Positions 12,343-38,119 are shown, counted from the first letter of the stretch. The stretch is 64,000 nt of DNA from an uncultured Gammaproteobacteria bacterium (GCA_964596525.1 CAZQUL010000001.1:601956-665955); one strand, 5' to 3'. Numbers and translations: made by a program. The notes: a model not told the origin generated them from the sequence alone.

Positions 12343-12401
12343 CGCTTATAAGATTTGAGGTCCTGTGAGCGGTCACCGACTCGATAACATAACAAACAAT
12401 T

Positions 12402-14083: not shown

Positions 14084-14115
14084 AATCGGCCGAGGTCGAT
14101 AACCAATTCAAACTT

Positions 14116-14895: not shown

Positions 14896-14909
14896 AAAGT
14901 TTATAAGCT

Positions 14910-16463: not shown

Positions 16464-16470
16464 AAGAATT

Positions 16471-18083: not shown

Positions 18084-18088
18084 AACCT

Positions 18089-18721: not shown

Positions 18722-18728
18722 AACAGCT

Positions 18729-20420: not shown

Positions 20421-20424
20421 ACAT

Positions 20425-20616: not shown

Positions 20617-20618
20617 AC

Positions 20619-20825
20619 ATGAACGACACACCAAACAATAAAGATCAGCCGTTTGATCCGAATCTGGGTTCGATACTCAACCTGCTCAGAGATATTCCGG
20701 TGTTAAACACACCGCCGTCCGATACGCCAAGAACCCCGATCAGCTTCGCTTTGTACGATAACGGAAGTACGCGACGCTTTTATATCTTTTTCAACGGAGT
20801 GTGGAGGTACGCAACGCTAACTTAA
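20619..20825 (+). CDS. Hypothetical small protein
   Basis: 68-aa ORF packed tightly between neighbouring genes. Confidence 0.2.
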   Translation: MNDTPNNKDQPFDPNLGSILNLLRDIPVLNTPPSDTPRTPISFALYDNGSTRRFYIFFNGVWRYATLT

Positions 20826-20831
20826 AAAACT

Positions 20832-22172
20832 ATGTCGCAGATAACAATACAAAAAGGTCAGACCCTTTCGGGAATCGCCAAGCAATACGGCACCACCGTA
20901 AACGATCTTCTGAAAGCCAATCCGACTATCAAGAATCCGAACCTGATATACGCCGGTTCTGCCTTAAATTTGCCCGGATCGCCAACTTCACCCGTTGTTG
21001 CCCCTAAGGCGAGCGTTCCGAGCCCAAGTCCCACCGTGACACCTTCTAAACCCGTAATACCCCCTGTTGCCCAAAATTCGAGCCCAGGGACGAGCGGTGT
21101 TCCTGAAAAGACCACGCTGTATGGAACTGATGTGCCTTCCAACACCTCTTTGCTCAAACAATACCGGTCCGAACTAGGCCTTGATACTTCCTTAAAGAGC
21201 ATGCAAGACAGCCAGACATCCTATCTCGACACTCTCAAGAATTTACCAAAAAAGTCTGATATCTACCAACAGGAGAGAACGAAAAGAGGAATCGATACGA
21301 TGGAAAAGAATTTGCAAAGCTTGGATAACAGGCTGGCGACAATGGAGGAAGCGATCAATAGTTCGGAAAAGGATATCAGAGACAGAATTGTTGGAAGTGG
21401 CGGACTCGTCACCGAAAGCCAAACCCAAAGATTGGTCGCTTCGGAAAAGCAACCGCTTATAGACGAATACAGAAAACTGCTCAATGAAAGAAACAGGCTT
21501 GCAACTCAAATGGGCACTGCCGAGACATCGGCAAAAGAAATTGCCGGTATGCAATATGAGGATTCAACTTTGCCTCTTACTGTCGCCGAAAAAACTCTCG
21601 GATTCCAGAAAGACCAATACAGCGTACTTGGTAACCTGTTAAGCCAAGTATTCGGTGCCTCAGAAAAAGATGTTGCGAACCTGATTGATTCCGCCAAATA
21701 CGGAAAAGAGCAAGAAAAGAAAGAAGCTCAAGACGTTATCGATCGAGCCATAAAACTTGCCCAGCTGGCCAATGATACTCCAGCCGGAACGGTGCTTGAT
21801 ATTGCCGGAACGAAAGTCTTAGGTACAAAGAAATCATCAGGCAGTGGATCGGATGGCGGTTCGGCGAGCGATGTCGAAGCGTACGCATTGGAACTACTGA
21901 ACAACCCGAACTTCACAGCAAGCAATGTCCCTCAGAACATTCGAGCTCAAGTCCTTCAAAAACGAGATCAGATCATAGCTGAAGCAAATACTCAACAGCA
22001 AGCAGATGCGGAGGCCGCCCAAGCACTGAAAGCGAGCCAGCCAAAGATAACAGCCCAAGACTTCGGTGCTGGGGTCAAAGATGTATTCACTCAAAAGATT
22101 CCGAGCCTTGCGAAGTCCGGATACAACACAACCAAGAACTTCTTCAAGGGTCTATTCGGCATCGGAAATTAA
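20832..22172 (+). CDS. LysM-domain virion protein
   Basis: 446 aa. The N-terminal [28 protein letters not shown]...[10 protein letters not shown] is a LysM peptidoglycan-binding domain, followed by a Pro/Ser linker and a long coiled-coil region. Confidence 0.6.
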
Positions 22173-22178
22173 AACGCT

Positions 22179-24986
22179 ATGGCTTACATTAAAGACCTTA
22201 AAACTGGAAAGTATATAAACACCGGATCTGCACCGGCCTCTCCTCCACTCACAAGATCGGCACCCGGTACTGCCATTAAGTACCAAAAGAATGCCGAGGG
22301 AAAGTACGTAACGACTGAAGTTGAAAAACCGGCAGGAAAACCGAACGTAACAACAGTCGAAGGACTGCGAGACTTTGCATTGCAAAATAATGTGGATGTC
22401 TCCTCCACTCAACCAAAAGAATCGACGTTGCAGAAAATTCTCCACGTACTCAATACCGGAGGATATGCTGTCGGCGGTCTTATAAGCGGAAAAGGGATCA
22501 TGGCCGGAATCAAAGAACACATCCAGCCGTCTGAAGCCCTCGGCATTAAGAGCAAGGTCGGCGGATTCATTGCCGACATTCTGCTTGATCCGACAACTTA
22601 TCTAAGTTTCGGCTACGGTGCCGGTGCAAAGCTTGCGACAAAAGCCGGAACAGTAGTCCTCAGTAAGACCGGAACCTCACTGCTCAAGAAATCTATCTTG
22701 GAGCTTGGCGAGGAAGGTGCGAGAAAAATGCTTGCCAAAAAGGTGCTTGAGGAAGGTGGCGAAAAGTTTTTGGCCAAGGGCGGTCTGAAATTTGCCGGTA
22801 AACAGATACTTCCACGTTCGGCCGTGACTGCACCGTTTAAAGCCGCAGACTGGCTTGTGGAAAAGACTCCTGTGGTCGGGAAAATATATGAGGGTGCAAA
22901 AGACTTGGCCGGAAAAGCATTTGTACCATTCAAGAGCATCAAAGATCTGCCCGGACGAATTGGCGAGGAATACATCGATAAATTTTCACAATTCAACAAA
23001 GCAACACGGTCCGAGATTGGAAAGGCTGTTGAGGAGGCGTCTGCATTGGGAAATACTGCCCGAAAGGAACTCGGTAAAGATTCCGGTACGGCTGTCGGTC
23101 GCATGATTGAAGGAATGACCGAAGCTCCTGCAAAGATTGCCGGTGGAATTGATCAAGTCGCCACTGCTGGCAATAAAGTAATTGACGACATCATTGGCCA
23201 CATTCGAGGAGAGCATAAACGTTTCGCAAGCCTTGAAAAAGAGCGAGGACTTTTGGAATTTGAATTGCCGGATTATTTGCGTCACTACCTGACACCGGAG
23301 GGTCGCGACTTTCTACAAAAGAATTCGGATGTTGCTGAGGAGCTAACAAAGAAAATGAGAGTCAGCACTCCATTTGCGAAATCTCGAACGCTTGATGACA
23401 CGATCGTGAACATAAACAAATACTTCCGAAAGACTCACGGCGTGAAGTTGTTTGAACAAGATGCATTCAAAGCATTTGCCGGACGTAAAGCCGAGCACAT
23501 CAAAGCTGTGAATACTTACGATTTCCTAACAGACGTAGGAAAACAATTCGGCAAGCAAGGCGAAGTGATAACCAAAGAATTCAAACATCCAGTGACCGGA
23601 AAAATGGCCACAAAAGAAACAATTAAACCGATTTATGAAAACGGCATGCGGTACATTGAAAGCACCGTGCCTCAACTTAAAGGCGTGCTTCTGCCCGAAC
23701 AGATCGTGAAGCATGTCGAGGAAACTTATAAGGTGCTTACTCATGACGAGGCGACAAAGAAATTCCTCAAAGTTTATGATAAGGCACTCGGCTTCTGGAA
23801 AGGATCAGTCACCGGGTGGTTTCCTGCTTTTCATATCAGAAACTCCATTGGTGGAATTTTCAACAACTGGATTGCTGGCGTGACGAATCCTACCCGGTAC
23901 CTCCAAGGCGACCAAATTGCCCGGGGAGTTAAGGGAATGATCACGACCAAGCTGGGTACAAAGTATTCATACCAAGAAATAAAGGAGATTGCCGAAAAAC
24001 TGGGAGTCGTCGGTCAGCCCGGTTATTTGGATGTGATGCGTGAAGTCGAAAAAGATATTGGCAAAGGGCCGATATCAAAATTGATGGATCTGCCCAAAGG
24101 TGCGATGGAAATAACAGAAAACCGATTGAGATTGCCACTCTTTGTTGATCGACTGATTAAGGGTGACGCACCGGAACAAGCTGCGAAATCGGTATTCCAA
24201 TTCCACTTCGACTACGCTCCTGAAGCTCTTGCACCGTTTGAGCAAAACATTATGAAGCGACTGTTGCCATTTTACCGATGGACACGAGGCAATATACCGC
24301 TTCAGCTTGAACAGATGGTTAAACAGCCAGGCAAGTACGCCGCTCTTGGCAAATTCATTGATAACATCCAAGTCGACAAAGAAAAAGCCAAAGAGGAATT
24401 CCAATACCTACCGCCTTATATGCGAGAAGGACTACCGGTCCGACTTGGTGAGAAAGGTGGATTCTCACAATATCTTTATGGTCTTGGTCTGCCGGTCGAG
24501 GATATTAACCGACTTTACAAAGGAAGTCCTCAAAGAACCTTGGCCAGCTTTGTCGGTGAGTTATCGCCATTGCTTAAATATCCGATAGAAGCCGGAACCG
24601 GACAAAATCTGTTCACTGGCGAGCCAATTATCGAAAACAGCCGAGTGTATCCGTTCGTGAACGCAATACCCGGACTGCGAGACTGGCTGGAAGTAACCGA
24701 ACACAAAGACAAGAACGGCAACGTGAGTTATCGGGCTAATGCTTATAAGCTTCACTTCTTAAATACGGCATTGGGACGTTTCTACACGACCGCCGGTAAG
24801 CTTACAGACGATAAGACATCAGGAGCCGTGAAATTCCTATACGGTCTTGTTGGAGCAAAAGCTAAATCGGTCGATATGGAAAAGGAAAAGTTTTGGCGAG
24901 ATCAGGAAGTGAAAGATCGACTTGAACAAGCATTGGAAAGTAGAGGTCTGATAAACCAGTATGAGCGTGCATACGTTCCGAAATAA
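22179..24986 (+). CDS. Large virion protein (935 aa), possible internal/ejection protein
   Basis: Largest ORF of the structural module, immediately upstream of the lysis cassette. No tail tube, sheath or obvious tape-measure genes are present, which suggests a podovirus-like arrangement. Confidence 0.4.
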   Translation: MAYIKDLKTGKYINTGSAPASPPLTRSAPGTAIKYQKNAEGKYVTTEVEKPAGKPNVTTVEGLRDFALQNNVDVSSTQPKESTLQKILHVLNTGGYAVGGLISGKGIMAGIKEHIQPSEALGIKSKVGGFIADILLDPTTYLSFGYGAGAKLATKAGTVVLSKTGTSLLKKSILELGEEGARKMLAKKVLEEGGEKFLAKGGLKFAGKQILPRSAVTAPFKAADWLVEKTPVVGKIYEGAKDLAGKAFVPFKSIKDLPGRIGEEYIDKFSQFNKATRSEIGKAVEEASALGNTARKELGKDSGTAVGRMIEGMTEAPAKIAGGIDQVATAGNKVIDDIIGHIRGEHKRFASLEKERGLLEFELPDYLRHYLTPEGRDFLQKNSDVAEELTKKMRVSTPFAKSRTLDDTIVNINKYFRKTHGVKLFEQDAFKAFAGRKAEHIKAVNTYDFLTDVGKQFGKQGEVITKEFKHPVTGKMATKETIKPIYENGMRYIESTVPQLKGVLLPEQIVKHVEETYKVLTHDEATKKFLKVYDKALGFWKGSVTGWFPAFHIRNSIGGIFNNWIAGVTNPTRYLQGDQIARGVKGMITTKLGTKYSYQEIKEIAEKLGVVGQPGYLDVMREVEKDIGKGPISKLMDLPKGAMEITENRLRLPLFVDRLIKGDAPEQAAKSVFQFHFDYAPEALAPFEQNIMKRLLPFYRWTRGNIPLQLEQMVKQPGKYAALGKFIDNIQVDKEKAKEEFQYLPPYMREGLPVRLGEKGGFSQYLYGLGLPVEDINRLYKGSPQRTLASFVGELSPLLKYPIEAGTGQNLFTGEPIIENSRVYPFVNAIPGLRDWLEVTEHKDKNGNVSYRANAYKLHFLNTALGRFYTTAGKLTDDKTSGAVKFLYGLVGAKAKSVDMEKEKFWRDQEVKDRLEQALESRGLINQYERAYVPK

Positions 24987-24990
24987 TCAC

Positions 24991-25218
24991 ATGGATAAAA
25001 ACTGCTACCAAAACCAAATACAAGATGAGCGTCTCGATCGGGTAGAAAAAACCGTAAACGAAATTAAAGACAATCATCTGGTGCATTTGCAGACTGACCT
25101 GACAAAAGTAGGGACGGATGTCGACTGGCTCAAACGGTTCTTTTGGATTTTAGCAACAGCATCAGTGGGAGGTCTGATAACGGCATTAATTAACTTATTA
25201 ATTTCTGTAACAAAATAA
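24991..25218 (+). CDS. Putative holin
   Basis: About 75 aa with a single C-terminal TM helix (FFWILATASVGGLITALINLLI), immediately upstream of the amidase endolysin. Confidence 0.4.
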   Translation: MDKNCYQNQIQDERLDRVEKTVNEIKDNHLVHLQTDLTKVGTDVDWLKRFFWILATASVGGLITALINLLISVTK

Positions 25219-25219
25219 T

Positions 25220-25735
25220 ATGGAACTTAAATCATCAAACATCAAATACTTGATTGTGCATCATTCGGCAACAGCCAGAGATACAACCACGTTTGAAGCG
25301 GTCAAAAAATATCACATCTCAAAAGGTTGGGGTGATATTGGATACCATTTCTTTATAACCCCCGAGGGCAAGGTACTGCCCGGACGAGCCGAAAATGTCG
25401 TCGGTGCTCAATGCCAAGCAGATAGCATGAATTTCAAATCATTAGGAATCTGCCTGCCGGGAAACTTTATGAATGAGGTGCCGACTACCCAACAGTTAGC
25501 ATCCTTGCTGAATCTGCTTCAAAAGCTGATGTCAAAGTACAACATTCCGAAAGAGAATGTCCTTGGCCACCGTGAGGTCAATGGTGCTTCGACAGCCTGC
25601 CCGGGAGATAATCTCCAAAGATGGGTAACCAGCTTCAGGATGCAAAAGAGTGAGGCCGATAACCGGTCCATGATCGCTGAGCAGGTCATGAACCACTTAG
25701 AGCAAGCAATCGATAAATTAAAACAATTACTATGA
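25220..25735 (+). CDS. N-acetylmuramoyl-L-alanine amidase endolysin (Amidase_2/PGRP fold)
   Basis: 171 aa with LIVHHSAT, GYHFFI and ACPG, the zinc-binding signature residues of type 2 amidases. Confidence 0.8.
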   Translation: MELKSSNIKYLIVHHSATARDTTTFEAVKKYHISKGWGDIGYHFFITPEGKVLPGRAENVVGAQCQADSMNFKSLGICLPGNFMNEVPTTQQLASLLNLLQKLMSKYNIPKENVLGHREVNGASTACPGDNLQRWVTSFRMQKSEADNRSMIAEQVMNHLEQAIDKLKQLL

Positions 25736-26193: not shown

Positions 26194-26655
26194 ATGGATA
26201 ATCTGACCAAAGTATTTAAAAATATGGCTGATGTCTTTTCCAAAGAAAAGCGAAGCCAGGTGATGTCCTTAATCCGAGCTAAGAATACCAAGCCAGAATT
26301 GGCCCTTCGTAAATTAATCAGCACGGCCTTCTATCCTCTTGGCTTTCGCTATCGGATTCATTATAAAAAATTGCCTGGCAAGCCGGACCTAGTTTTCGTT
26401 TCACAAAAGATTGCCGTTTTTGTCGACGGGGCTTTTTGGCACGGATATACCTTTAGAAAGATAAAAAACAGGCTGCCTAAGAAATATTGGCGGGATAAAA
26501 TCATGTCCAATATTAGACGGGATAAGCAAACCAATCGTGCCCTCAGAAAATTAGGATGGAGAGTTATTAGAGTATGGGATCATGATATAAGTAGGCATTC
26601 CGATAGAGTTTTAAATAAAATCTCGGCCGTCATTAATGCGCGAAAGACGGTCTAG
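26194..26655 (+). CDS. vsr: Very-short-patch repair endonuclease Vsr
   Basis: 153 aa. RSQVMSLIRAKNTKPELALRKLI...GFRYR...LPGKPDLVF...FVDGAFWHG matches the Vsr signature. Confidence 0.8.
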   Translation: MDNLTKVFKNMADVFSKEKRSQVMSLIRAKNTKPELALRKLISTAFYPLGFRYRIHYKKLPGKPDLVFVSQKIAVFVDGAFWHGYTFRKIKNRLPKKYWRDKIMSNIRRDKQTNRALRKLGWRVIRVWDHDISRHSDRVLNKISAVINARKTV

Positions 26656-26700
26656 ACCTAAAAAATATTATGTGTAAAAATAAAGCAAGTACTCTTTTCC

Positions 26701-27510
26701 ATGAAATCGAATAAGCTTCCAAAACCAAACAGCCCTGAGCTGACCTCAATTTTGAAGGGGACCAAGGCTAGGGCTATATATAAGACTCTGTTTGAGAATA
26801 AAGAAAGACCTTTGACGATGTCTGAGATCAGGCTGTTTTTAGGGTTAGAAGCAGGAGAGCAAGAACACCTGAACCGAAGGATGCGCGAACTTTATGGATT
26901 CTTTAATATAGTGCGGTCCAAAAGAGGCAGTGATACTGTGTACCGTTTAGATTCTGTATCCGAGAAACCCTATCAAACGACTAGCAGTATTTCAATTAAA
27001 ACTAGGGCATGGGTCCTGCGCGATCAAAGGTGCGCTCAATGCGGACGCACTCCTGTCGAAGACGGAGTAAAGTTGCATGTAGACCACATAGTTCCCAAGG
27101 AATGGGGCGGAACGGATGATCCTGAGAACTTGCAAGCTCTCTGTTCCGAGTGCAATGAAGGTAAGAAAAATTTATACTCGAGTTTCAATAAATTTGGAAC
27201 TAAAATCAAAATTGCTATTAGTTATGATGAGCCTCACAAAAGAATCGGTGAACTACTAAAGGCTTTTGACGGGCAGCCTGTGCCTTCTGAGCTGCTAGAG
27301 ATAGTGGCTAAAGCCAAGCAGTATCAAGATGATTGGCAAAAAAGGATGCGCGAATTAAGAGAGCTTGGCTGGGAATATACATTCGAGAAACGGAAAGAGG
27401 GCTCGAGGTTCAAAACTTATTTTACCCTCAAAAAATTCGCTCCGTGGCCTGAAGGTAATATTAAGGCTGAAATAAGAAAAAGGGAGCTCCAAAAGAAAGC
27501 ATCTCTTTAA
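26701..27510 (+). CDS. HNH endonuclease with N-terminal wHTH, putative type II restriction enzyme of the Vsr/C5-MTase module
   Basis: 269 aa. CAQCGR...HVDHIVPKEWGG.DDPENLQALCSECN is an HNH motif with a zinc ribbon. It lies between vsr and a convergent C5-MTase. Confidence 0.5.
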   Translation: MKSNKLPKPNSPELTSILKGTKARAIYKTLFENKERPLTMSEIRLFLGLEAGEQEHLNRRMRELYGFFNIVRSKRGSDTVYRLDSVSEKPYQTTSSISIKTRAWVLRDQRCAQCGRTPVEDGVKLHVDHIVPKEWGGTDDPENLQALCSECNEGKKNLYSSFNKFGTKIKIAISYDEPHKRIGELLKAFDGQPVPSELLEIVAKAKQYQDDWQKRMRELRELGWEYTFEKRKEGSRFKTYFTLKKFAPWPEGNIKAEIRKRELQKKASL

Positions 27511-27520
27511 AAGAATTCCG

Positions 27521-28510
27521 TTAGGCAAAGGTTATTTTTTCCTTTCCTAAGAAAAGAGCTTCTTTAATAGCCTTTCCTACCGCCTCAGCAACGGGCGGAG
27601 GGAAAGCATTTCCTATCTGCCGGTAGGCAGCCGTCTTTTTTCCGTAAAATTTCCAATTTGAAGGGAATCCCTGTATAACAGCCGCCATTTCAATCGTAAG
27701 CCGGGGTTTTCCATTAAAATCTGCTGCTGGTACTGAGTCTGCTATGCCTCCGCCATCGACTCCCAATGCAGCCCAAGCGGCCTTTGCTCGAGTTGGGCCT
27801 AGGTCAGCACCTCCGTGTTTCTTTGATCCTCCCACAAGCGTCGGCGCCACTTTTGAGGCCCGCAGCTTCCACTCTTCCGCGCCTTTCCATCCCTGGCTAG
27901 ACATTAAAGCGTAAAGGGCTTCGCCGACAGTTAGTAGTTGATTCTCATTTCCTGTCGGCCATTTGAAATATTCGGCATAAGGTTGCTGTAAGGCAACCAT
28001 TAAAGTTCTTGGGCGTAATTGAGGAACTCCAAAATGAGCCGCATGTAGCAGTTTCCACTCTACCTTATAACCAATTTCTTCCAGCTGTCGTGAAATTTCT
28101 TCTCTATAATCTCTAAATTTAGGATCTAACAACCCTCTTACGTTCTCAATCATTACTGCTTTTGGCCTAGTCTTTTTTATAAGTTTCAGCGCAGCAGGAA
28201 ATAGGTCTCTCTCATCTAAATGCCCCAATTGTTTTCCAGCTTTTGAAAAAGGAGGACAGGGCACTCCGCCCGCAACCAGATCGACCTTTCCTTTGTAAGA
28301 TTCGCCGTCAAAATTATTAAGGTCTTCTTGGATTACATTCCACTGCGGACGATTTAATTTCAGTGTCGAACAAAATTGAGGTTCGATTTCTACAAGAGCG
28401 ATATGATCAAAACCCGCACGTTCAAGGCCTATGGCTTGGCCCCCGGCTCCGGCGCAAACTTCTATGGAAGTTAATTTTTCTTCTCTATGTTTCATAACAT
28501 CTTGTATCAC
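27521..28510 (-). CDS. DNA cytosine-5 methyltransferase
   Basis: 329 aa with motif I (VCAGAGG), the PC motif (GGVPCPPFSKAG), ENV (MIENVRGL) and motif X (QIGNAFPPPV). Confidence 0.85.
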   Translation of the reverse strand: MIQDVMKHREEKLTSIEVCAGAGGQAIGLERAGFDHIALVEIEPQFCSTLKLNRPQWNVIQEDLNNFDGESYKGKVDLVAGGVPCPPFSKAGKQLGHLDERDLFPAALKLIKKTRPKAVMIENVRGLLDPKFRDYREEISRQLEEIGYKVEWKLLHAAHFGVPQLRPRTLMVALQQPYAEYFKWPTGNENQLLTVGEALYALMSSQGWKGAEEWKLRASKVAPTLVGGSKKHGGADLGPTRAKAAWAALGVDGGGIADSVPAADFNGKPRLTIEMAAVIQGFPSNWKFYGKKTAAYRQIGNAFPPPVAEAVGKAIKEALFLGKEKITFA

Positions 28511-28632: not shown

Positions 28633-29964
28633 TTATGGCTCATTAATCCTTATTCGCCCTTCCTTTACTTGAATTTTTGATTTAAAATAGCTCATTAATT
28701 CTCTTTTCTCTTCATTTGTTCCATCCCTTAGAATATACTTAACATAAGCCTTTAGATCTATTTCTTCATAGTTAGCCGGGGATTGGGCTATACCCAGCAC
28801 TCGCTTTTGAAGCTTATTTATTCTTTTAATTTCTTCCTCAAATTTATGCTGGATTCCTATGGAATTTAACTCTATCTGGTCTATAAGCTTTTCTAGCTGA
28901 TTAACGAGTTCCTCTTCCCTTAAATACTGATTCTTACAATGCCTATCTTTCGACCTCCCGCACCCATAATAAATATACTTCGCCACCGTTCCATCTTTCA
29001 GCTGCTTATACTTCTCCTCGGCAGAAATACCTGAGCCGCATAAACCGCACGCCATAAGCTTGGTAAAGGCAAACTCGTGACTCTGCCGTACGATATTATC
29101 CCGTTTAAGCTGTGCTTGAGCCAGATCAAACAATTCTTTAGTAATAATCGGCTCATGCTTCCCTTGATACCAATTGCCGGAGTTTTTAGGGTATTCAAAA
29201 ACCCCATAATAAAGGGGGTTTTGCAAGACGCGGAATATGTTTCCTAAAGCCAAGTTGTGATTACCGATTGTCTTGAAATTAAGCTCGAATTTCAGCCAAT
29301 GATATATTTTCCTTCCCGACCATTTCTCATAGGCCATCTTTTCAAAAATTTTCTTCACAATCGGTGCTCGATCTGGATCGATGATAATCTGGCATCTCTT
29401 GTCTATCAGCTTCTGGTTTAAATAGCCGACAGGCGCCAAGCCGGGCCATAAACCCATTTCTACCCGGGCCCTTAAGCCTCGTTTCACATTAATACCTCGA
29501 TTATCGTTCTCCAGTTTTGCCTGACTTCCTAAAATCATGAGAAGGAATTTTTCATTAGGAGAGTTGGTAAAACGCTGTCCATACGTACGGATCTCAGTTA
29601 AAACGTTCTGGTCTATGAGATCGACTATCTTTCCTAGATCGCCGGCGTTTCTAGAAATACGATCTGGTGCCCAGGTAAGTATGCCATTGTATTTTTGATG
29701 CTTGAGGTCTTCAATTATTTCGTTAAAAATCGGACGTTCACCCGCCTCTTTTGCTGAATGGGATTCACGTTTTATTTCTACTACCGTTAACCCTTCTCGC
29801 TCTGCTAGTTGCAACATCTCTTTTACTTGGGAATCAACGGAAAGGACCTGCCGCTCTTCGGACTCAGTACTTTTCCGAGCGTAGAGGCAGTAGCGTACTT
29901 GAGGCACGGCCGTTTGTTTTGCTGCCATCTGTTGAGTTATAGGTGCCATATAAGCTGCATTCAT
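28633..29964 (-). CDS. Large serine recombinase (putative prophage integrase)
   Basis: 443 aa. N-terminal resolvase domain (YARKSTESEERQVLSVDSQ), a central recombinase domain, and a Cys-rich zinc ribbon (CGLCGS...CGRSKDRHC). The true start may be an internal Met. Confidence 0.8.
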   Translation of the reverse strand: MNAAYMAPITQQMAAKQTAVPQVRYCLYARKSTESEERQVLSVDSQVKEMLQLAEREGLTVVEIKRESHSAKEAGERPIFNEIIEDLKHQKYNGILTWAPDRISRNAGDLGKIVDLIDQNVLTEIRTYGQRFTNSPNEKFLLMILGSQAKLENDNRGINVKRGLRARVEMGLWPGLAPVGYLNQKLIDKRCQIIIDPDRAPIVKKIFEKMAYEKWSGRKIYHWLKFELNFKTIGNHNLALGNIFRVLQNPLYYGVFEYPKNSGNWYQGKHEPIITKELFDLAQAQLKRDNIVRQSHEFAFTKLMACGLCGSGISAEEKYKQLKDGTVAKYIYYGCGRSKDRHCKNQYLREEELVNQLEKLIDQIELNSIGIQHKFEEEIKRINKLQKRVLGIAQSPANYEEIDLKAYVKYILRDGTNEEKRELMSYFKSKIQVKEGRIRINEP

Positions 29965-30623: not shown

Positions 30624-31004
30624 CTAAACACCCCTATCTTCATCAATTAAGTCTTCTAATGTTTTCTCTGGTACTTTAATAGGAATATTTGATTCTGTCC
30701 GGTGCGTTAAGATAACATTCTTTTTTTTCGGCTTATATCTTGGAGAGTTGTGGCTGAGCACGTACTTTATTGCTTCTAGCCTCTTTTCTTTCACGAGCAA
30801 CATTAACGAATGCTCAGCCGCATCGCTCATATTTTCCCTGCCCTGACGCTCGGCCAGTTTTGCTTGTTTATGGAAATCCTTATCTTCTTTACACCACCGA
30901 TAGTAAGTTGATTTATCAATCCCTGTTTTTATGCACGACAAAGACACGTTCCCGCTTTTTGCGATTTCGATAATCAGCTTGGACTTAGTCTCTGCATCGA
31001 TCAT
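30624..31004 (-). CDS. HTH-domain protein (terminase-small-subunit-like or transposase-like HTH)
   Basis: 126 aa. IIEIAKSGNVSLSCIKTGIDKSTYYRWCKEDKDF is an HTH. Lies adjacent to the ParB-MTase gene. Confidence 0.35.
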   Translation of the reverse strand: MIDAETKSKLIIEIAKSGNVSLSCIKTGIDKSTYYRWCKEDKDFHKQAKLAERQGRENMSDAAEHSLMLLVKEKRLEAIKYVLSHNSPRYKPKKKNVILTHRTESNIPIKVPEKTLEDLIDEDRGV

Positions 31005-31009: not shown

Positions 31010-32323
31010 TTATTTAATCTTTACCGGTTTTTTACCCGTTTCCTTTTCCCAGCGTCGTAAAATGACTTGGGTATAAACCGGAGACTTTTCCATAATATAA
31101 CAACGGCGTTTCATCCGTACCGCGCTTATAAGCGTTGACCCACTTCCACCGAATGGTTCAACAATCAAATCATTGCGTTTTGTAAGCACCTTGATGTAGG
31201 GGATAAGGATTTCAACCGGCTTCGTACCGAAAATAATCCCCTGGCCGGAAGACTTCTCATCCGCCGCTTTATAGTCAATAAAATCCGTGGGGCAGATCTT
31301 CTTGCCTTTTTCGTATGATTCCCAGTGCGGCTTGCCGCTGATCGCGTAGAGCGCGGTTTCATACTCGTTTTCCAAGAATTCGCCTTCATCCTCGGTCCGA
31401 GGAGTAATGCCTTCCGTTCCCCCGACAATGGCGATATCATGCTTGTTGAAGAACTTGTTGCTGGCAGCAAAACCCTGCATCCGGTTCGGCACGTGCCAGA
31501 CGATCATGTTCCTCACCTTCCAGTGCTTTTCCATCTCGTTCCAAATAGTCCGGATATTCTTCCAGTTCTCGTATACGATGATGGAGAAATTTTCCTTGGC
31601 GACTTTCCGGATATTGCCCATCCATTTTTCGGTAAAGTCCGGCGGGAGCTCGTCAGTCTCTAAATATCTCCGGTTTTTCTTTGAGCCAAAGCCTCCGTCT
31701 TTGTCCTTCGCTCCCTTGAGATAATCGAGGATGTAGGGCGGATCAGTAAAACACATGTCGGCTTTTTGACCGTTCATAAGCTTAAGCATGTCCTCAGGAA
31801 TCGTAGAGTCTCCGCAAAGAATACGTGATCCGTCTAATTCGTAAATGTCACCTTTTTGCACGGTAACGGTCTGGATATCGATCTTCTCCAACTCTTTCTT
31901 TAAATCAAATTGTTCTTCGTGAATCTCCTGTGGAAAGATATTGTCGAGCTCTTCGCTATCGAAACCGACATCAGACAGGAACGATTCATCGAATTGCGCG
32001 AGCAAGTCGAGATCAAATTCACCGGTATTCTTGTTAAGGCGCAGATTCAGCTTTTTCTCCTTGGAAAGGTCAGGAATATTCACGTAAACGACTGGTATGG
32101 TGACTAGCCCAAGCTCTTTTGCGACTTCGGCTCTGAAATGGCCGCCGATAATGACGTTCAAGCGCTCAGGGGCGCTGTTGCAGATAATGGGGTCAACGAG
32201 GCCGAACTGCTGGATCGATTTTTTAAGCTGCTCGGATTGTTCTTTGGAATGCTTGCGCGGGTTGTATTCCGCGGCGCGCAGATTGTTGATAGGTACTTCG
32301 ATGATACTTATTTTGGGGTTCAT
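31010..32323 (-). CDS. ParB-N-domain / DNA methyltransferase fusion (N6/N4 class)
   Basis: 437 aa. N-terminal ParB-like nuclease domain (…YNPRKH…GGHFRAEVAKELG), then CFTDPPY (motif IV) and EPFGGSGSTLISA (motif I). Confidence 0.8.
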   Translation of the reverse strand: MNPKISIIEVPINNLRAAEYNPRKHSKEQSEQLKKSIQQFGLVDPIICNSAPERLNVIIGGHFRAEVAKELGLVTIPVVYVNIPDLSKEKKLNLRLNKNTGEFDLDLLAQFDESFLSDVGFDSEELDNIFPQEIHEEQFDLKKELEKIDIQTVTVQKGDIYELDGSRILCGDSTIPEDMLKLMNGQKADMCFTDPPYILDYLKGAKDKDGGFGSKKNRRYLETDELPPDFTEKWMGNIRKVAKENFSIIVYENWKNIRTIWNEMEKHWKVRNMIVWHVPNRMQGFAASNKFFNKHDIAIVGGTEGITPRTEDEGEFLENEYETALYAISGKPHWESYEKGKKICPTDFIDYKAADEKSSGQGIIFGTKPVEILIPYIKVLTKRNDLIVEPFGGSGSTLISAVRMKRRCYIMEKSPVYTQVILRRWEKETGKKPVKIK

Positions 32324-32605
32324 AGGTAAGGTTTAAGGTTAAACAAAAAAGCTAATTCCTATCATGGATTAGCGTTTTTTGAGTTCGACCTGGAAACCTC
32401 AAAGAATCATTTTTCCAATGATAGGGAAATAATGATTTTCGAGATTCCTGGTCTATTTTCTTCTCTGAAGAGTGGCTACGGCTAAATCCGTATTCTGTGA
32501 GCCAAATGAGAAGTTTTTGGTGATCAGGTCCGAAAGATCGAAAGAGGGGTGCTGCATCGGCTGAGCCTGGCAGCTGTAGATAGGATACACTGGGGATAAA
32601 TTGCG

Positions 32606-32640
32606 TGTCAATGCTGTCAATAAATCTATTGACGGAGAAG
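32606..32640 (+). promoter_or_regulatory. Putative operator palindrome plus -10 box upstream of the lexA-like gene
   Basis: gtcaat-aaatct-attgac inverted repeat (32606-32623), with an extra gtcaat half-site at 32597, then TATAAT at 32635-32640. The gene begins at 32696. Confidence 0.3.
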
Positions 32641-32695
32641 GCTGTATAATGATAAAATTCGATCATCACCACTTCCTTTCATTATTTTTCAGCTT

Positions 32696-33331
32696 ATGAA
32701 TGAGAATCAACAAAAGATTATTGACCTGGCCAAAAAGAAGAATATCTCCCGAATGAGCTTTCGCGAAATCGGGCGCGAGCTGGGGATTCCGAATCCTCAA
32801 ACGGTTATCTATCATCTGGATCAATTAAAGAAAAAAGGGGTTGTCTATTCTGATGCCGCTCATAAAACCCGCGTCGCAAAACCGAAGGCGTTTGCGATAG
32901 ATAAAATTTTCAACATCCCGATCGTCGGCTCCGCTAATTGCGGGCCTGCTTCGGAATTGGCGCAAGAAGATATACAGGGCTATTTGAAAATTTCACAAAA
33001 ATCGCTCGGCGTCTCCAAGCCCGATGGCTTGATCGCGATTAAGGCGATAGGAGATTCGCTCAATAAAGCGAATATTAACGGTGATGCCATTGAAAATGGC
33101 GATTATGTAGTGGTTGACGCAAAGAAGCAGCCGAAAAACGGTGACTATGTCCTGTCGGTTATCGATAATGCTGCAAATTTTAAGAAGTTTTTTAAAGATG
33201 AAAAAAGAGGGGAGATCAGGTTGATCTCAGAGTCTACGTTCGATTTTCCGCCAATTGTTTTGCACGAAGAAGACTTTGAGAGTTCTGGTTATTTAGTAAA
33301 TGGCGTGGCGGTAAGGGTTGTAAAGACTTAG
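32696..33331 (+). CDS. lexA: LexA-like repressor (wHTH + S24 autopeptidase)
   Basis: 211 aa. N-terminal wHTH (SFREIGRELGIPNPQTVIYHLDQLKKKG). The Ala-Gly cleavage context VGSANCGPASE, the Ser motif IGDSL and a downstream Lys are all present. Confidence 0.7.
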   Translation: MNENQQKIIDLAKKKNISRMSFREIGRELGIPNPQTVIYHLDQLKKKGVVYSDAAHKTRVAKPKAFAIDKIFNIPIVGSANCGPASELAQEDIQGYLKISQKSLGVSKPDGLIAIKAIGDSLNKANINGDAIENGDYVVVDAKKQPKNGDYVLSVIDNAANFKKFFKDEKRGEIRLISESTFDFPPIVLHEEDFESSGYLVNGVAVRVVKT

Positions 33332-33339
33332 GAAGTTTT

Positions 33340-34710
33340 ATGAGGTATGTATTTCCAAAACCCGCGTCGGAAGATGATTTTGAAGAAATGGTCTGCGATA
33401 TTTTTTCTCGAATTTTTCAGAATCCCAATTTGCAAAGATTTGGTCGGCGGGGGCAAGACCAAAAAGGTCTAGATATTTTAGGGGGTTTTGCGGGTCAGGA
33501 TTTTAGCGATGGAAAATTGGCCGCTATTCAGTGTAAAAATCATCCTGCTGGCATTAAATCCTCTAAGCTTAGACGAGAGCTGGAAAAAGATTTAAAGAAG
33601 TTTGATAAATCCGGTCTTCAAATTAAAAAATTTTATTTTGTAACAAGTGCCGAGAGTGACAAAGATTTAATAGAGTTTGTTTTAAAGATAAATAAGGATC
33701 GCAAGAAAAAGAGGAAAAGTTTAGTAACTATCCGTTTTTGGAATTTTATTCAACAAGAAATATTTAAATATCAAGATCTGGTTTATAAGTATTTCACAAG
33801 GCTGCTTCCCTCAGAAAAAGGCCTTGATACCTACATTCCTGATTTAAAAATGAAAAATAGAGAGACTCTTGTCGTAAAATACAATGAACTTATCGATAAA
33901 GAAGCCGTGTTGAAAATTCGTAAATCATTAGAAAGAATTATTGAAATTAATCTTAAAAATCTAAAACAGTCTAAAGAATATAACTTATATATAGGCGTTT
34001 CTTCAAAAGAAAATAGTATCTCTGATGGAGTAGTTGATCTGAATATAGATTTTAGCGACCTTTTTAAAACTGAAGAGAATCTGGAAGAAAACTTTCGGAA
34101 TATGGCTTCTTCCCTAAAAGGTCTTTTAAAAATCCTTGATAATAAAATTTTTTCTAAACAGGTAGTTCTATATCTAGAGACTGAGATAAGCCTCGCTTTT
34201 TTACTTGGATTATTTTTTAGGAAATATAAGTTTAACGTTAAGATAGTTTTTAAAGACCAGGTATGGACCACTTCTCAAAATGATCTTCAGTATGTAGACC
34301 CGCAACTTGTTGATAAAAAGCCGATTTTAAAATTTCCTGAAAATGATCAGGGTGGAATAATAGTAGACGTACGTAACGGTGCTGGCTTAGATATTGAGCC
34401 TGAGGTTCAGCAGTATCTAAATTCAATCCCAAATTCTCCCTCAGTCCTCCTGTCTTATAGAGTAATAGGTGAAAGAATCCAAAATAGTGCGCATGCGCTA
34501 TCTTTTGCAAAAGGAATAGCGGATAAAATTCTTCAGCTCAGAATGTGGAATATTAATCATATCCATCTTTTTTTCGCAGTCCCAAAACCGGTCGCTTTTC
34601 TTATTGCTTATTCCCTTAATACTTTAAATAGTAGTTTGCACCTGTATTTTAGAAGCGCAGATCGTACAACTTATTTAAAATCATATACTATCACTAACAA
34701 TACTTTTTAA
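33340..34710 (+). CDS. CBASS Cap4-like effector candidate: N-terminal Mrr-type PD-(D/E)xK nuclease plus a large C-terminal domain (possible SAVED-like sensor)
   Basis: 456 aa. FEEMVCDIFSRIF...GRRGQDQKGLDILGG...AIQCKNH matches the Mrr_cat restriction-endonuclease fold (D...QxK). About 330 C-terminal residues have no recognisable motif. SD-like aggaag precedes the ATG, 8 nt after the lexA stop. Confidence 0.5.
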   Translation: MRYVFPKPASEDDFEEMVCDIFSRIFQNPNLQRFGRRGQDQKGLDILGGFAGQDFSDGKLAAIQCKNHPAGIKSSKLRRELEKDLKKFDKSGLQIKKFYFVTSAESDKDLIEFVLKINKDRKKKRKSLVTIRFWNFIQQEIFKYQDLVYKYFTRLLPSEKGLDTYIPDLKMKNRETLVVKYNELIDKEAVLKIRKSLERIIEINLKNLKQSKEYNLYIGVSSKENSISDGVVDLNIDFSDLFKTEENLEENFRNMASSLKGLLKILDNKIFSKQVVLYLETEISLAFLLGLFFRKYKFNVKIVFKDQVWTTSQNDLQYVDPQLVDKKPILKFPENDQGGIIVDVRNGAGLDIEPEVQQYLNSIPNSPSVLLSYRVIGERIQNSAHALSFAKGIADKILQLRMWNINHIHLFFAVPKPVAFLIAYSLNTLNSSLHLYFRSADRTTYLKSYTITNNTF

Positions 34711-34713
34711 TAT

Positions 34714-35724
34714 ATGGCCTCTCTTAACTCTTCTTTTGAAGAATTTCTCAGTAAAATAGAACCAAATAGCAAAATCCAACAATATGCGCAAAAAGCCCAT
34801 ATTTCGCTTACAGATCATCTCAAAAACGATGCTGAATTTGGGGAATTTGTTGAAAACTCTTTCCTTTACGGTTCTTATAAGCGGCACACTGCAGTTGGCG
34901 ATATTGAGGATATCGATATTTGTCTAATAACAAATTTTAACTCCAACGATCCTTCATTGAAACCAAGCGAAGTTTTAAGAAAGCTTAAAGCATCGATAAG
35001 TAATTTTTATAAATTAGAAAATAATACTGAAATTCAAAGAAAGTCCGTTAAAGTAAAAGATGCTCTCCCCGATAATCCTTCAGTCGAGATTTCGCTTGAT
35101 GTTCTACCTGCAATCGCACCGTATGGAGAAGACGGTGTTTTATTGGTGCCGGATAAAGAATTGGCAGCCTGGGTGAAAAGTGACCCGAAAGCTCATCTAG
35201 CTTATGCCACAAATCTAAATTCGCCAGAAAATAGTAATGGTCGTTACATTCCATTAGTTAAGTTGATGAAATGGTGGTGGAAATATCAAAAGGAAGAGAG
35301 GTGGCCTGGCGAGAAACATAAACCTAAAGGTTTTTGGGTAGAATGTTTAACGGGATTATTTTTTAATCCAAACAAGGAAAATTGGGCGGAAAATTTTATA
35401 GCAGTTCTTGAAGGTGTTGAAAATAGCTATGGTAGTGCATCTGACGTGCCCGCTTTACCCGACCCAGGTTTGCCGGGTGAGAGCATAAAAACAAAAATGA
35501 CTAATGAGGATTTTCAAGATTTTATTGAAGTCGTAAAGAATTCTTTAGATTTAGCAAGAAATGCATATAATGAGAGCGATAATTTTCTAAGCTCAAAATT
35601 ATGGCAGTCAATTTTTGGACATAAATTTCCTCTCTCCGAAGGAAATGGTGGCTCAGAAAATAAGTCGATAAATCCGAGCGTTGGAATTAAACCTCATCGG
35701 CCGTGGCATGCGTATGTTGAATGA
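34714..35724 (+). CDS. cGAS/DncV-like nucleotidyltransferase (CD-NTase, SMODS type)
   Basis: 336 aa. GSYKRHTAVGDIEDIDICL is the pol-beta NTase GS...[DE]h[DE]h motif as found in CdnC/CdnD-type enzymes. Starts 3 nt after the effector gene. Confidence 0.75.
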   Translation: MASLNSSFEEFLSKIEPNSKIQQYAQKAHISLTDHLKNDAEFGEFVENSFLYGSYKRHTAVGDIEDIDICLITNFNSNDPSLKPSEVLRKLKASISNFYKLENNTEIQRKSVKVKDALPDNPSVEISLDVLPAIAPYGEDGVLLVPDKELAAWVKSDPKAHLAYATNLNSPENSNGRYIPLVKLMKWWWKYQKEERWPGEKHKPKGFWVECLTGLFFNPNKENWAENFIAVLEGVENSYGSASDVPALPDPGLPGESIKTKMTNEDFQDFIEVVKNSLDLARNAYNESDNFLSSKLWQSIFGHKFPLSEGNGGSENKSINPSVGIKPHRPWHAYVE

Positions 35725-36403
35725 AAGCGATAAAAAGTGGTTAAAAGAAAAAAATCCAGGATTAGTTATCGAGCCTGATAAAATAACTGGGACCATAAAA
35801 TTTATAGGCGCTTATAGTCCTTCGCTTGATAAATTTTGGCAAATTGAAAAAGGCGTTGTCCCTAGTAAAGACTCCTATATATTAGGGGGTTCATTTTTGG
35901 TGCGTATTCAGGAGAAGGTCGGCCACAGATTTCCCATTCTCTTTTTAGAGGACAGCAAAATTAAAAAAATTCCAGACCGTCATCTTAACTCAGATGGCTC
36001 TGCATGTCTGTATGTTCGTTTAGAAGAGAGTTTTGTTCTGCCTAATTCTGATTTTAAAATTTTTTTTCAACAATTAATCATTCCTTTTTTATACGCACAG
36101 TTATTTTTTGATAGGAAAGGTTGTTGGCCCTGGGATGAATATTCACATGGTTCGGCGGGGATCTTAGAGTCTTTTTTATATTCAAGTGGAAAAATAAAGG
36201 CAGAAGATTGTTTAATAGAGCTAAAAAAATCCAATGATTGGGAAGATGTTAAAAGGATTTTGTCTCAGAAGAAGATTAAAGGCCACTTGACGAGATGTTT
36301 TTGTCCGAAAAAGGATTATTTAAGACGCTGCCATTCCGATGCTTGGAAGGGGATTATAAAGTTGCATGAAGATATGATTGCTCAAAGAATTTTGATTCCT
36401 TAA
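35714..36403 (+). CDS. E2 (UBC)-like protein candidate
   Basis: ATG at 35714 overlaps the CD-NTase stop. About 229 aa. HLNSDGSACLYV resembles the E2 HPN...C active-site loop, and a beta-meander precedes it. Confidence 0.4.
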   Translation: MLNESDKKWLKEKNPGLVIEPDKITGTIKFIGAYSPSLDKFWQIEKGVVPSKDSYILGGSFLVRIQEKVGHRFPILFLEDSKIKKIPDRHLNSDGSACLYVRLEESFVLPNSDFKIFFQQLIIPFLYAQLFFDRKGCWPWDEYSHGSAGILESFLYSSGKIKAEDCLIELKKSNDWEDVKRILSQKKIKGHLTRCFCPKKDYLRRCHSDAWKGIIKLHEDMIAQRILIP

Positions 36404-36431
36404 TTCTTTTTTAAGCAAGAAAAACGTAAGT

Positions 36432-37142
36432 ATGGAATTAAATCTCAAGCCAAAACAGTATTATATCGACCTTTATGATCATGGGACGGTCGATATTTGT
36501 CGGAGGTTCGACAAGTCATCAGCCGATTATGATCCTATGGAACTTAAGAAAAATAAGATATCTAAACGGCAAACGCTCTTAATAGATAAAGGAGCTCGGC
36601 AATGGCTCGTTCATGTGCAATCCGGCGAGCGGCATTTGAATAAGGAAAAAACTATTCGCGAATGGATGGATGCTGATCAGAAGAGAGACGAGCTGTACGA
36701 ATCTGCCCAGCCTCCCGAAGACATCCCTTGCCTCACGTGCCGCAACCGTCTCAAGGTGGCATGCAAGGAACTTTGGACCGAGCACGAAAAAGAAGATCGA
36801 GTTCTTTTCATGTACGACTGCCCCAATAAGTGCCTTCCGCATCGTGCGTTCTTTTCCGATGGTGAAGAGTGGAGGACGAAGCAACCTGCCTGTCTTCGTT
36901 GTGGATCTCTACTCATCCAAGAATCAGAAGATGACGGGCTTAAGCTCATCACCACATCTTCTTGCAAGAAGTGCAGCCATGCCGAAAAGGAGGAGTATGT
37001 CTGGAGTGCAAAGAAAGGGGAAGATATCGACGAGAACTTTGCTGCCGATCGCGACCGCTATTGTATGACCGACGAGGAAGGCAAGAAGTATCAGGATGAA
37101 AAATGGAACATAGAACGCATCGGAAAGTTCATGAAAGAATAG
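36432..37142 (+). CDS. Double zinc-ribbon protein (CLTC/CPNKC/CLRC/CKKC)
   Basis: 236 aa with four CxxC pairs in the C-terminal half. 28 nt after the E2-like gene. Confidence 0.3.
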   Translation: MELNLKPKQYYIDLYDHGTVDICRRFDKSSADYDPMELKKNKISKRQTLLIDKGARQWLVHVQSGERHLNKEKTIREWMDADQKRDELYESAQPPEDIPCLTCRNRLKVACKELWTEHEKEDRVLFMYDCPNKCLPHRAFFSDGEEWRTKQPACLRCGSLLIQESEDDGLKLITTSSCKKCSHAEKEEYVWSAKKGEDIDENFAADRDRYCMTDEEGKKYQDEKWNIERIGKFMKE

Positions 37143-37157
37143 AAAGAAAAGGAAAAG

Positions 37158-37457
37158 ATGCAGGAAGAAAAGCTCAAGCTAAATCCGAAAGGTTTTCATC
37201 TCGATGGTGCCGGATACGCCTGCTGCATTTGCGGCGATCATACGCCCGAAGGAGATAATTGGCATGAAAAGTACGGAATCAAATGCCTTGTCTGCCAGAA
37301 AGCGATCGACGAGGGCGAGATACCAGCGGCTTTGGCGAAGTACAAAGATAGCTGGTACACCAAGTATGATTTTGAGCACTATTTCAACGTGAAGGGTCCC
37401 GCTCTTAGAATGTGGATCAAGAAAGGTGTTGTCAGTCCGCGCATCATCAGTCATTAG
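37158..37457 (+). CDS. Small zinc-finger protein
   Basis: 99 aa with CCICGDH...CLVCQ. Confidence 0.3.
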   Translation: MQEEKLKLNPKGFHLDGAGYACCICGDHTPEGDNWHEKYGIKCLVCQKAIDEGEIPAALAKYKDSWYTKYDFEHYFNVKGPALRMWIKKGVVSPRIISH

Positions 37458-37487
37458 GGCAAAGGCGAGCATGCGCAGGTATTTCTC

Positions 37488-37754
37488 ATGAGAGATAACA
37501 AGAACTTTCTTCCACCGAAGAATCTGTTAAAGAGCCATAGCGTCAACGAGAGAAAGGAAGGTGGAAAGGTCTGGACGCATATGGAACCCTGGTATCGTTT
37601 TGTTGATCCGTATAAGTACCTAAAGAAGTGCAGGATTATGAACTATTTGCGTGTTGTTCCACCCGAAGAAGTGAAGGCTAGGGAGGAGGAAGAAAAGAAG
37701 AAGTATGAAGAGAAAAAAATCCGTCGAGAAGCTCAAAGAAAAATGCGGAAGTAG
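37488..37754 (+). CDS. Small Lys/Glu-rich protein
   Basis: 88 aa. Charged C-terminal tail EEVKAREEEEKKKYEEKKIRREAQRKMRK. Confidence 0.25.
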   Translation: MRDNKNFLPPKNLLKSHSVNERKEGGKVWTHMEPWYRFVDPYKYLKKCRIMNYLRVVPPEEVKAREEEEKKKYEEKKIRREAQRKMRK

Positions 37755-37774
37755 TGTCGCATTTGTCGTATTTT
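37755..37774 (+). repeat. 20-mer tgtcgcatttgtcgtatttt, copy 1 of a duplicated promoter-like motif
   Basis: 19 of 20 nt identical to 45444-45463. Intergenic, immediately after the 37488-37754 stop. Confidence 0.5.
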
Positions 37775-37819: not shown

Positions 37820-38119
37820 ATGACTCTTTATATCTATGATACAAGCGGCCGAACAGTAGGTTTCCGGAGAGGAAAGTATATTCACGATATGCATGGTAAA
37901 GCCATAGGGCAGATTAACAGGGAGACGCACGTCCACAAGCTCTCAGGAGAATATGTAGGAGAACTCGATCATGACATGGTGGTTGATAAGCATCTGGGCA
38001 ACCTTGGGAATATTGGAAATCCCGGGAATCCCGGTAATCCAGGTTCTCCGGGCAACCCAGGTAGCCGGGGAAGTGTTAATTATGGTTATCCTGATGTTTT
38101 TTCAAAACTTGAAGAATAA
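37820..38119 (+). CDS. Small protein with C-terminal collagen-like G-X-Y triplet run
   Basis: 99 aa. GNLGNIGNPGNPGNPGSPGNPGSRGS is 9 consecutive GXY triplets, encoded by a 9-nt periodic DNA repeat at 37990-38070. Confidence 0.35.
   Translation: MTLYIYDTSGRTVGFRRGKYIHDMHGKAIGQINRETHVHKLSGEYVGELDHDMVVDKHLGNLGNIGNPGNPGNPGSPGNPGSRGSVNYGYPDVFSKLEE

Follow-up and report, generated by a model that had tools for sequence, protein, structure and literature searches.

A LexA-family S24 repressor gene at the head of a string of antiviral genes in a prophage

How suicidal antiviral systems are kept quiet until they are needed is an active question, and it is raised again by a 64,000-nucleotide (nt) stretch of DNA deposited from an uncultured Gammaproteobacteria bacterium (GCA_964596525.1 CAZQUL010000001.1:601956-665955; hereafter the window), in which the genes of a CBASS (antiphage signalling based on cyclic oligonucleotides) follow, on the same strand, a gene for a LexA-like protein. 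Can a self-cleaving repressor of the LexA type, the classical device of the SOS response, also hold an immune operon in check? Three classes of CBASS regulator have been described, CapH/CapP (10.1101/2022.04.27.489752), CapW (PMC9122588, PMC11662680) and CapK/CapS (PMC13373217), which are released by DNA damage, sensed by unusual means, and are shared among defence systems. By alignment, the string in the window encodes a LexA-family S24 repressor with all its catalytic residues, and a survey of related loci showed that repressors of this family stand at the head of many different defence systems. The string, which the original prediction had sketched as a CBASS-like operon with its own repressor, consists of the following features:

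32696-33331, plus strand: LexA-family repressor gene (Pfam, PHROG, alignment to E. coli LexA)
33340-34710, plus strand: CBASS effector gene, Mrr-type nuclease plus SAVED (Pfam SAVED, conserved motifs)
34714-35724, plus strand: gene for a nucleotidyltransferase of the cGAS/DncV-like kind (CD-NTase; Pfam, PADLOC, PDB alignment)
35708-36403, plus strand, start at 35708 or 35714: E2-only Cap2-like gene (PADLOC E2, conserved Cys)
36432-37142, plus strand: gene for a Cys-rich protein of 236 amino acids (aa), in the same gene string
37158-37754, plus strand: the element's conserved terminal gene, split by an in-frame TAG
37741-37764, plus strand: terminator-like hairpin with a T-run, closing the gene string

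The first four open reading frames (ORFs) lie where they had been predicted, and so does their tight spacing: 8 nt separate the repressor from the effector gene and 3 nt the effector from the CD-NTase gene, and the E2 gene begins inside the 3′ end of the CD-NTase gene, overlapping its stop codon. The 8-nt gap holds an AGGA ribosome-binding site that overlaps the stop codon of the repressor gene. A scan of the region predicted no credible terminator between the repressor and effector genes, in keeping with the proposed link between the two; terminator-like matches occurred at chance level (7 found against 5.6 expected), and the best placed of them is the one at 37741-37764 that closes the string. 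The layout is that expected of genes that may be co-transcribed.

The repressor joins an N-terminal LexA-type winged helix-turn-helix (HTH) to a C-terminal S24 autopeptidase, as seen from the Pfam matches to LexA_DNA_bind (PF01726, 26.5 bits against a cutoff of 23.7) and Peptidase_S24 (PF00717, 7e-15), and it also matches the PHROG family phrog_4 (transcriptional repressor). A profile of the repressor together with 26 homologues gives an end-to-end alignment with E. coli LexA, with a hidden Markov model match of only E = 5e-10. In this alignment Cys82-Gly83 corresponds to Ala84-Gly85 of the E. coli protein, Ser121 to Ser119 and Lys163 to Lys156, and all four residues are invariant across the 27 sequences. 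The Ser/Lys dyad on which the original prediction had staked the capacity for self-cleavage is therefore present. Cys82-Gly83 is the predicted cleavage site, UmuD being likewise cleaved at a Cys-Gly site, and cleavage would presumably depend on RecA. Hundreds of 211-aa homologues with 62-76% identity were found, nearly all of them in assemblies of the candidate phyla radiation (CPR); in deposited phage genomes there was no close relative (best 32% identity), and a search of viral contigs gave two distant matches among the matches listed.

The protein does not fall into the described regulator classes. It shares with CapH/CapP, CapW and CapK/CapS the position of a repressor beside CBASS and other defence operons and, as predicted here, the logic of release by DNA damage. 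In those systems, however, a metallopeptidase cuts an HTH partner, a WYL domain binds single-stranded DNA or a kinase phosphorylates the repressor, whereas here a single S24 Ser/Lys autopeptidase, presumably stimulated by RecA, would perform the task, and its gene is the first of the same-strand string. A pair of the CapH/CapP type (HTH protein and metallopeptidase) was not found at the locus, where the S24 protein is the sole regulator and gave weak HTH matches only in PADLOC; the CapW/BrxR architecture (winged HTH-WYL-WCX) is also absent, the domain search having detected no WYL domain in any gene between 30348 and 38119. None of the regulators in the papers on CapW, CapH/CapP and CapK/CapS is an S24 autopeptidase, and LexA-type regulators are not mentioned in them. 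With bacterial LexA and UmuD the repressor has in common the full-length alignment, the cleavage site and the dyad, as well as repeats upstream of its own gene that suggest self-regulation. It differs from bacterial LexA in its candidate binding site, an array of GTCAA-type repeats instead of CTGT-N8-ACAG, and in having mobile defence cargo behind it rather than repair genes.

The candidate site lies in the intergenic region upstream of the repressor gene, which has these features:

32606-32633, no strand assigned: putative operator, with direct TGTCAAT repeats at 32606 and 32615 (9 nt apart) and an inverted TATTGAC at 32627-32633
32629-32658, plus strand: TTGACG-18 nt-TAAAAT, a sigma-70-like promoter reading rightward, its -10 preceded by TG (promoter scan)
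32611 to 32582, leftward: promoter-like site with TTGACA at 32611 and TATCCT ending at 32582, the first half-site serving as its -35

The inverted repeat GTCAATA-N4-TATTGAC at 32616-32633 overlaps the -35 box TTGACG, and a third GTCAA at 32607 completes a cluster of three half-sites that is the sole one in the 64-kb window (shuffled sequences give 0.2). A palindromic operator overlapping the promoter had been proposed; repeated half-sites do overlap the promoter, but the conserved feature is a pair of direct GTGTCAA copies with an inverted copy at the -35, not a simple palindrome. In related loci the sole conserved intergenic block reads GTGTCAAnnGTGTCAA...TTGACA-17 nt-TATAAT, in which the direct GTGTCAA repeats are always 9 nt apart and the inverted copy forms the -35 box. 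Half-sites are enriched about 10-fold upstream of repressor homologues; the tandem repeat with a 9-nt period was present in 14 of 24 close loci but in just 0.2% of control windows, and 58 of 81 loci had at least two half-sites, compared with about 2% of controls. Four regulator copies with 74-75% identity (L006, L007, L026 and L169) are without an upstream GTCAA array. Behind these copies, which lie among transporter genes in a chromosomal setting, come an 81-aa ORF and a gene for an HhH-GPD glycosylase that carries an HTH.

What stands behind the repressor is, by its gene content, a complete CBASS. The effector (SAVED domain, 3.6e-10 in Pfam) is a fusion of an Mrr-type PD-(D/E)xK nuclease (about residues 1-150) with a SAVED sensor (about residues 210-456), so that a cyclic-nucleotide sensor fused to a killing domain is encoded next to the cyclase, the arrangement by which a CBASS is recognised. 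The nuclease motifs G43-x-D45 and Q64-C-K66 are invariant, which agrees with the Mrr-type motif read earlier, and the architecture is rare, 10 homologues having been found. Effectors of the Cap4 type similarly combine a DNA nuclease with SAVED, but their nuclease belongs to the Cap4 endonuclease family and not to the Mrr type. The CD-NTase, of 336 aa, matches SMODS in Pfam (2e-21) and the PADLOC cyclase model (2e-67). Its residues 6-316 align with the solved CD-NTase 9sa4 (E = 6e-46) and also with CdnD-type enzymes, the best solved relatives, and the catalytic residues G53-S54, D66-I-D68 and D129 are in register; the alignments point to the cGAS/DncV-like fold and active site that had been predicted.

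The fourth protein is rightly called E2-like: it matches the PADLOC E2 model at 7e-28 (Pfam E2-ntca below cutoff, 20 bits against 27.5), carries the motif DRH-x3-G-x-A-C100-L, with its catalytic-type cysteine, invariantly in three homologues, and has a C-terminal CxC...CH motif; a sequence search of the PDB found no match to it. Neither Pfam nor PADLOC detected an E1 (ThiF) or JAB domain in the operon genes, and because the E2 protein keeps the DRH...G-x-A-C100-L motif with no E1 or JAB partner, the system is best placed with the E2-only type II (type II short) CBASS. This class, with a single E2, has already been described (PMC12948482), and the likeness extends to a CD-NTase accompanied by a stand-alone E2 with a conserved catalytic cysteine and no E1 or JAB. 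The cyclase reported as typical of the class is a long, clade-G CD-NTase with a C-terminal motif that recruits the E2 (PMC12948482), whereas the cyclase in the window is short, with 9sa4 and CdnD as its nearest solved relatives. Within a class that is already known, this CBASS is unremarkable save for an effector of a rare kind. The Cys-rich 236-aa protein had no match in Pfam, PADLOC or PHROG; since its homologues recur beside different cargo (L010, L071 after Pycsar genes, L081 and L114), it behaves as an optional backbone gene and not as a part of the CBASS.

Is the repressor bound to this one system? Related loci were gathered from genomes, metagenomes and assemblies, de-duplicated and counted if at least 1.5 kb of sequence lay downstream, which gave 115 loci. 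The cargo was classified with Pfam and PADLOC and then by similarity to the proteins so annotated, the counts being lower bounds, and the loci were divided by identity of the regulator into a close tier (at least 53%) and a distant tier (below 53%):

Close tier, 60 loci: CBASS 21, other defence 13, housekeeping 10, unclassified 16
Distant tier, 55 loci: CBASS 3, other defence 28, housekeeping 6, unclassified 17, no cargo 1

CBASS of types I, II and III thus occurred in 24 loci and other defence genes in 41. The pairing on which the original prediction rested recurs in the relatives, with CBASS after the regulator in 21 of the 60 close loci; these systems include patatin, Cap15, SAVED-nuclease with E2, and Cap2 with Cap4, and one of the three distant-tier CBASS loci is a type III system with HORMA and TRIP13. 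The other defence genes of the close tier comprised four Avs4, two Thoeris-like TIR, two restriction-type and one each of PDC-S54, SIR2, HEPN, Shedu and HigB, and those of the distant tier 19 restriction-modification (R-M) systems, five MazF/PemK, two Pycsar, one Shedu and one Thoeris. The regulator is therefore not specific to CBASS, as repressors of its family, with the same array of half-sites, also precede Avs4, Thoeris, Pycsar, Shedu, SIR2, HEPN, R-M and toxin genes. A conserved terminal gene of about 210 aa marks the end of the cargo slot, and at one locus (L024) it directly follows the regulator with no cargo between. Regulator and operator together form a reusable front end ahead of interchangeable defence cassettes. 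The distant tier was also considered as host LexA beside ribonucleotide reductase, a suggestion that was dropped, the recurrent 791-aa neighbour being an N6-methyltransferase/specificity fusion.

Some copies of the regulator are chromosomal, and near-identical regulators with the same repeats are found in chromosomal positions of host type and on prophages. One such chromosomal copy without phage genes (P0075) lies between a PIF1 helicase and RarA. Two assemblies with this same gene (L085 and L086, with the PIF1 helicase upstream and NYN and RarA/MgsA downstream) differ in that a gene for a Gp49/HigB-like toxin stands right after the regulator in one and is absent from the other.

Such copies, one of them with a variable toxin-antitoxin insertion right behind it, lend some weight to the view that the association is adjacency without control, i.e., that the regulator is a host-type SOS repressor or a remnant beside which defence cassettes insert, the CBASS being expressed from a promoter of its own. 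The gap to the next gene is larger in the distant tier (median 65 nt), a weak promoter-like match (9 of 12 positions) lies within the LexA-like gene at 33141-33169, and homologues of the effector-cyclase pair occur in other genomes with full Cap2 and JAB and without a LexA-like regulator. From the last observation it follows that the CBASS is a self-contained cassette that was captured behind the regulator. Nevertheless, mere adjacency appears quite improbable: in the window the gap is 8 nt and the ribosome-binding site overlaps the regulator's stop codon, in close homologues the gap between the regulator and the first cargo gene has a median of 20 nt and is kept at 30 nt or less in 18 of 25, the cargo is always on the same strand and directly downstream, never upstream, and a sister phage, described below, has exchanged regulator and CBASS type together. 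At locus L097 (protein P0149, on a 512-kb contig) an effector homologue, with 50% identity, belongs to a full type II CBASS with Cap2 and JAB, in a separate defence island that has a serine recombinase and Hachiman beside the CBASS and no LexA-like gene. At another locus (L099) a 221-aa gene upstream of the effector homologue was considered as a relative of the regulator and rejected, the protein not being LexA-like.

The wider neighbourhood shows where the cassette resides. The CBASS genes are carried as cargo by a prophage, at whose right end they lie; its other genes in the window are:

7531-25735, plus strand: prophage structural and lysis genes (PHROGs, Pfam), including the next six
7531: large terminase (PHROGs/Pfam)
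9180: portal (PHROGs/Pfam)
12402: major head protein (PHROGs/Pfam)
14910: tail fibre (PHROGs/Pfam)
20832 and 25220: lysins (PHROGs/Pfam)
26194-28510: Vsr, HNH nuclease and Dcm (C5 cytosine methyltransferase), prophage genes adjoining the serine recombinase
28633-29964, minus strand: serine recombinase (Pfam, PHROGs)
30624-31004, minus strand: small HTH / terminase-small-like protein (Pfam, PHROGs)
31010-32323, minus strand: ParB-N6/N4 DNA methyltransferase (ParB methyltransferase), divergent from the LexA-like gene (Pfam, PHROGs)

The phage genes have a G+C content of about 45%, the CBASS one of 35-40% and the host sequence on the right one of 50-53%. The host encodes a UvrA whose named relatives belong to Ca. 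Magasanikbacteria / Patescibacteria; judged by these relatives, the host is probably a Ca. Magasanikbacteria-like member of the CPR. The recombinase, HTH and ParB-methyltransferase genes form a conserved backbone on the left side of the regulator. A ParB methyltransferase lies upstream of the regulator in 32 of the 60 close loci. The proposal of a CBASS operon under an S24 repressor thus survives in its parts and their pairing, but it had missed the prophage-cargo context and had taken as peculiar to CBASS a regulator that is not. A sister phage, the IMG/VR genome UViG_3300025154_002045, was found through a 935-aa protein of the tail region; its structural genes are 73-90% identical to those of the window, and after its lysis genes come a 40%-identical LexA-like gene, a DUF2188 gene, a CD-NTase-like gene and Cap15, followed by a recombinase and a type I R-M system. 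The cargo of this genome indicates that regulator-plus-CBASS modules are phage-borne accessory cargo, and that sister phages differ in both parts. At the position of the Vsr, HNH and Dcm genes related elements carry a MamI R-M system (L089), two Dcm (L091) or a type I R-M system (L092), and in the window 26194-28510 looks like a second variable cargo region of the element.

This setting brings to mind lambda, in which the defence genes rexA and rexB adjoin the prophage repressor cI. The LexA-like protein might accordingly be the lysogeny repressor, with the CBASS as a co-expressed passenger that protects the lysogen, and DNA damage would then induce the prophage and not the CBASS. Much at the locus fits: it lies inside a prophage, beside a recombinase, the regulator matches the phage repressor family phrog_4, and the operator also spans the leftward promoter that faces the divergent ParB-methyltransferase, HTH and recombinase genes; prophage repressors with defence genes next to them are moreover well known, e.g., BstA (PMC8585504). 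Lambda cI-rexA-rexB and BTP1 BstA (PMC8585504) share with the window a self-cleaving S24 repressor on a prophage with an abortive-infection defence behind or beside it that protects the lysogen. The window differs from lambda in the LexA-type winged helix, where CI has its own type of HTH, in the CBASS cargo, in a slot that holds many systems, in the CPR host and in a repressor family that is also found in chromosomal, non-phage contexts. These contexts, in which the family and its repeats occur without phage genes (P0075, PIF1 helicase/RarA), speak against a lysogeny repressor, and so do the R-M, toxin and Thoeris genes that the regulator heads without any recombinase/ParB backbone. There is, furthermore, a single operator cluster in the 64-kb window, beyond which the left end of the prophage may lie, a terminator-like hairpin stands between the leftward promoter and the start of the ParB-methyltransferase gene, and the LexA-like genes of the sister phages are just 40% identical where their structural genes are 73-90% identical. 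A lysogeny switch of the lambda kind is, on this evidence, rather unlikely; it overlaps with the explanation preferred below, from which it differs in which output matters.

The explanation preferred here, to which we attach moderate confidence, is that a temperate phage, integrated into a Ca. Magasanikbacteria-like (CPR) chromosome, carries its accessory defence arm here, under a LexA-family repressor that is released by RecA-stimulated self-cleavage. The repressor would bind the GTCAA repeat array, which would span the -35 of its own promoter and that of the divergent leftward promoter, and with both -35 boxes covered the gene string would be kept at a low, self-limited level. Under this control would stand the E2-type CBASS (Mrr-nuclease-SAVED effector, CD-NTase and E2), the 236-aa protein and the terminal gene. 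When RecA-bound single-stranded DNA builds up, be it after DNA damage or while an infecting phage replicates, the repressor would cut itself at Cys82-Gly83 and leave the DNA, and expression of the operon would rise. The CBASS would then presumably act as such systems do: on infection its cyclase would produce a cyclic oligonucleotide, and once SAVED had bound this the nuclease would degrade DNA, whereby the infection is aborted.

Several points weigh against this reading. As the half-sites also serve as the -35 boxes of two divergent promoters, their conservation alone is no proof of repressor binding and could in part stem from promoter function. The interval before the inverted copy is anything from 8 to 11 nt, depending on the locus, a variability unusual for a rigid dimer site. 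The promoter-like match at 33141-33169 could drive the CBASS independently. That defence-labelled genes within 5 kb lie downstream in 29 of 53 loci, and upstream at none of them, speaks for the reading, but as a control it is biased because the classification references came from downstream genes. Many of the related loci stem from few environments, so that their independence may be incomplete. Were the prophage to be induced by the same cleavage, an abortive-infection system boosted just then could be to the phage's own detriment, and no self-immunity element was identified.

A further explanation accepts the repressor and alters its trigger: the S24 protein would sense a signal other than RecA filaments, tying the cassette to another stress or to a phage trigger, perhaps with DUF2188 as its partner. 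A precedent is IrvR of Streptococcus mutans, a LexA-like protein reportedly regulated independently of RecA (PMC7101444), and in at least 12 related loci the regulator gene has a DUF2188 gene right behind it. The window itself, however, has no DUF2188 gene, and the cleavage-site loop and the Ser/Lys dyad align with those of the RecA-responsive LexA and UmuD, which makes a different trigger highly improbable. The DUF2188 protein (77-81 aa, phrog_3220), which stands directly after the LexA-like gene in many relatives and in some lies upstream on the opposite strand, could be a co-regulator; it was seen at L003, L009, L010, L013, L016, L023, L062, L087, L089, L091 and L092 and at many of L101-L164.

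Returning to RecA-triggered control, how far does it reach beyond the window? The layout resembles lambda cI-rexAB and the logic, by analogy, that of CapW, CapH/CapP and CapK/CapS; what is apparently unreported is this class of regulator and that, in phages and genomes of the CPR, it heads a cargo slot. Nothing comparable was found in the literature searched on S24/LexA regulators of defence operons and on prophage defence in the CPR. A tentative proposal, plausible though short of probable, is that, in CPR/Patescibacteria and their phages, LexA-family winged-HTH-S24 repressors constitute a fourth class of immune-operon regulators responsive to DNA damage, widespread and so far undescribed, with one front end and interchangeable cassettes. 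If this is true, a single switch triggered by RecA would serve the host DNA-damage response, prophage induction and antiviral immunity alike in these reduced genomes. The window locus, with about 65 related ones, suggests that self-cleavage of a LexA-type repressor on a RecA trigger, the classical SOS mechanism, is employed for many defence systems too. These loci also show in concrete form the immunity and the temperate phages of CPR bacteria, about both of which little is known. The main limits on novelty are the classical precedent for the layout in lambda and a regulation that is itself deduced; the association is broad and apparently unreported. It has been proposed that cellular SOS repressors and phage repressors exchange roles (PMC8565304), and the presence of one repressor family on phages and in chromosomal positions bears on that proposal.

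A few smaller features of the region may be added. A bidirectional terminator-like hairpin at 32345-32379 lies between the operator and the start codon of the ParB-methyltransferase gene (32323, minus strand). It would end a leftward transcript from the 32611-32582 site after about 230 nt, which suggests a leader or small RNA; this candidate had no Rfam match and its sequence is unconserved in the relatives. The 370-nt region 32324-32695 was likewise considered as the site of a structured RNA or a small gene and set aside, Rfam giving chance matches only and the sequence, apart from the operator block, being unconserved across the loci; a 106-aa minus-strand ORF within it found no support. The terminal gene encodes about 210 aa in relatives (L002, L003, L017 and L024), whereas in the window an in-frame TAG at 37455-37457 divides it into ORFs of 99 and 88 aa and could represent either a nonsense mutation or a stop codon that is recoded. 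At 37820-38119 a gene for a small beta-flower protein (PF21784) with a GNPGNPG collagen-like repeat stands between the element's end and the LD-carboxypeptidase gene of the host.

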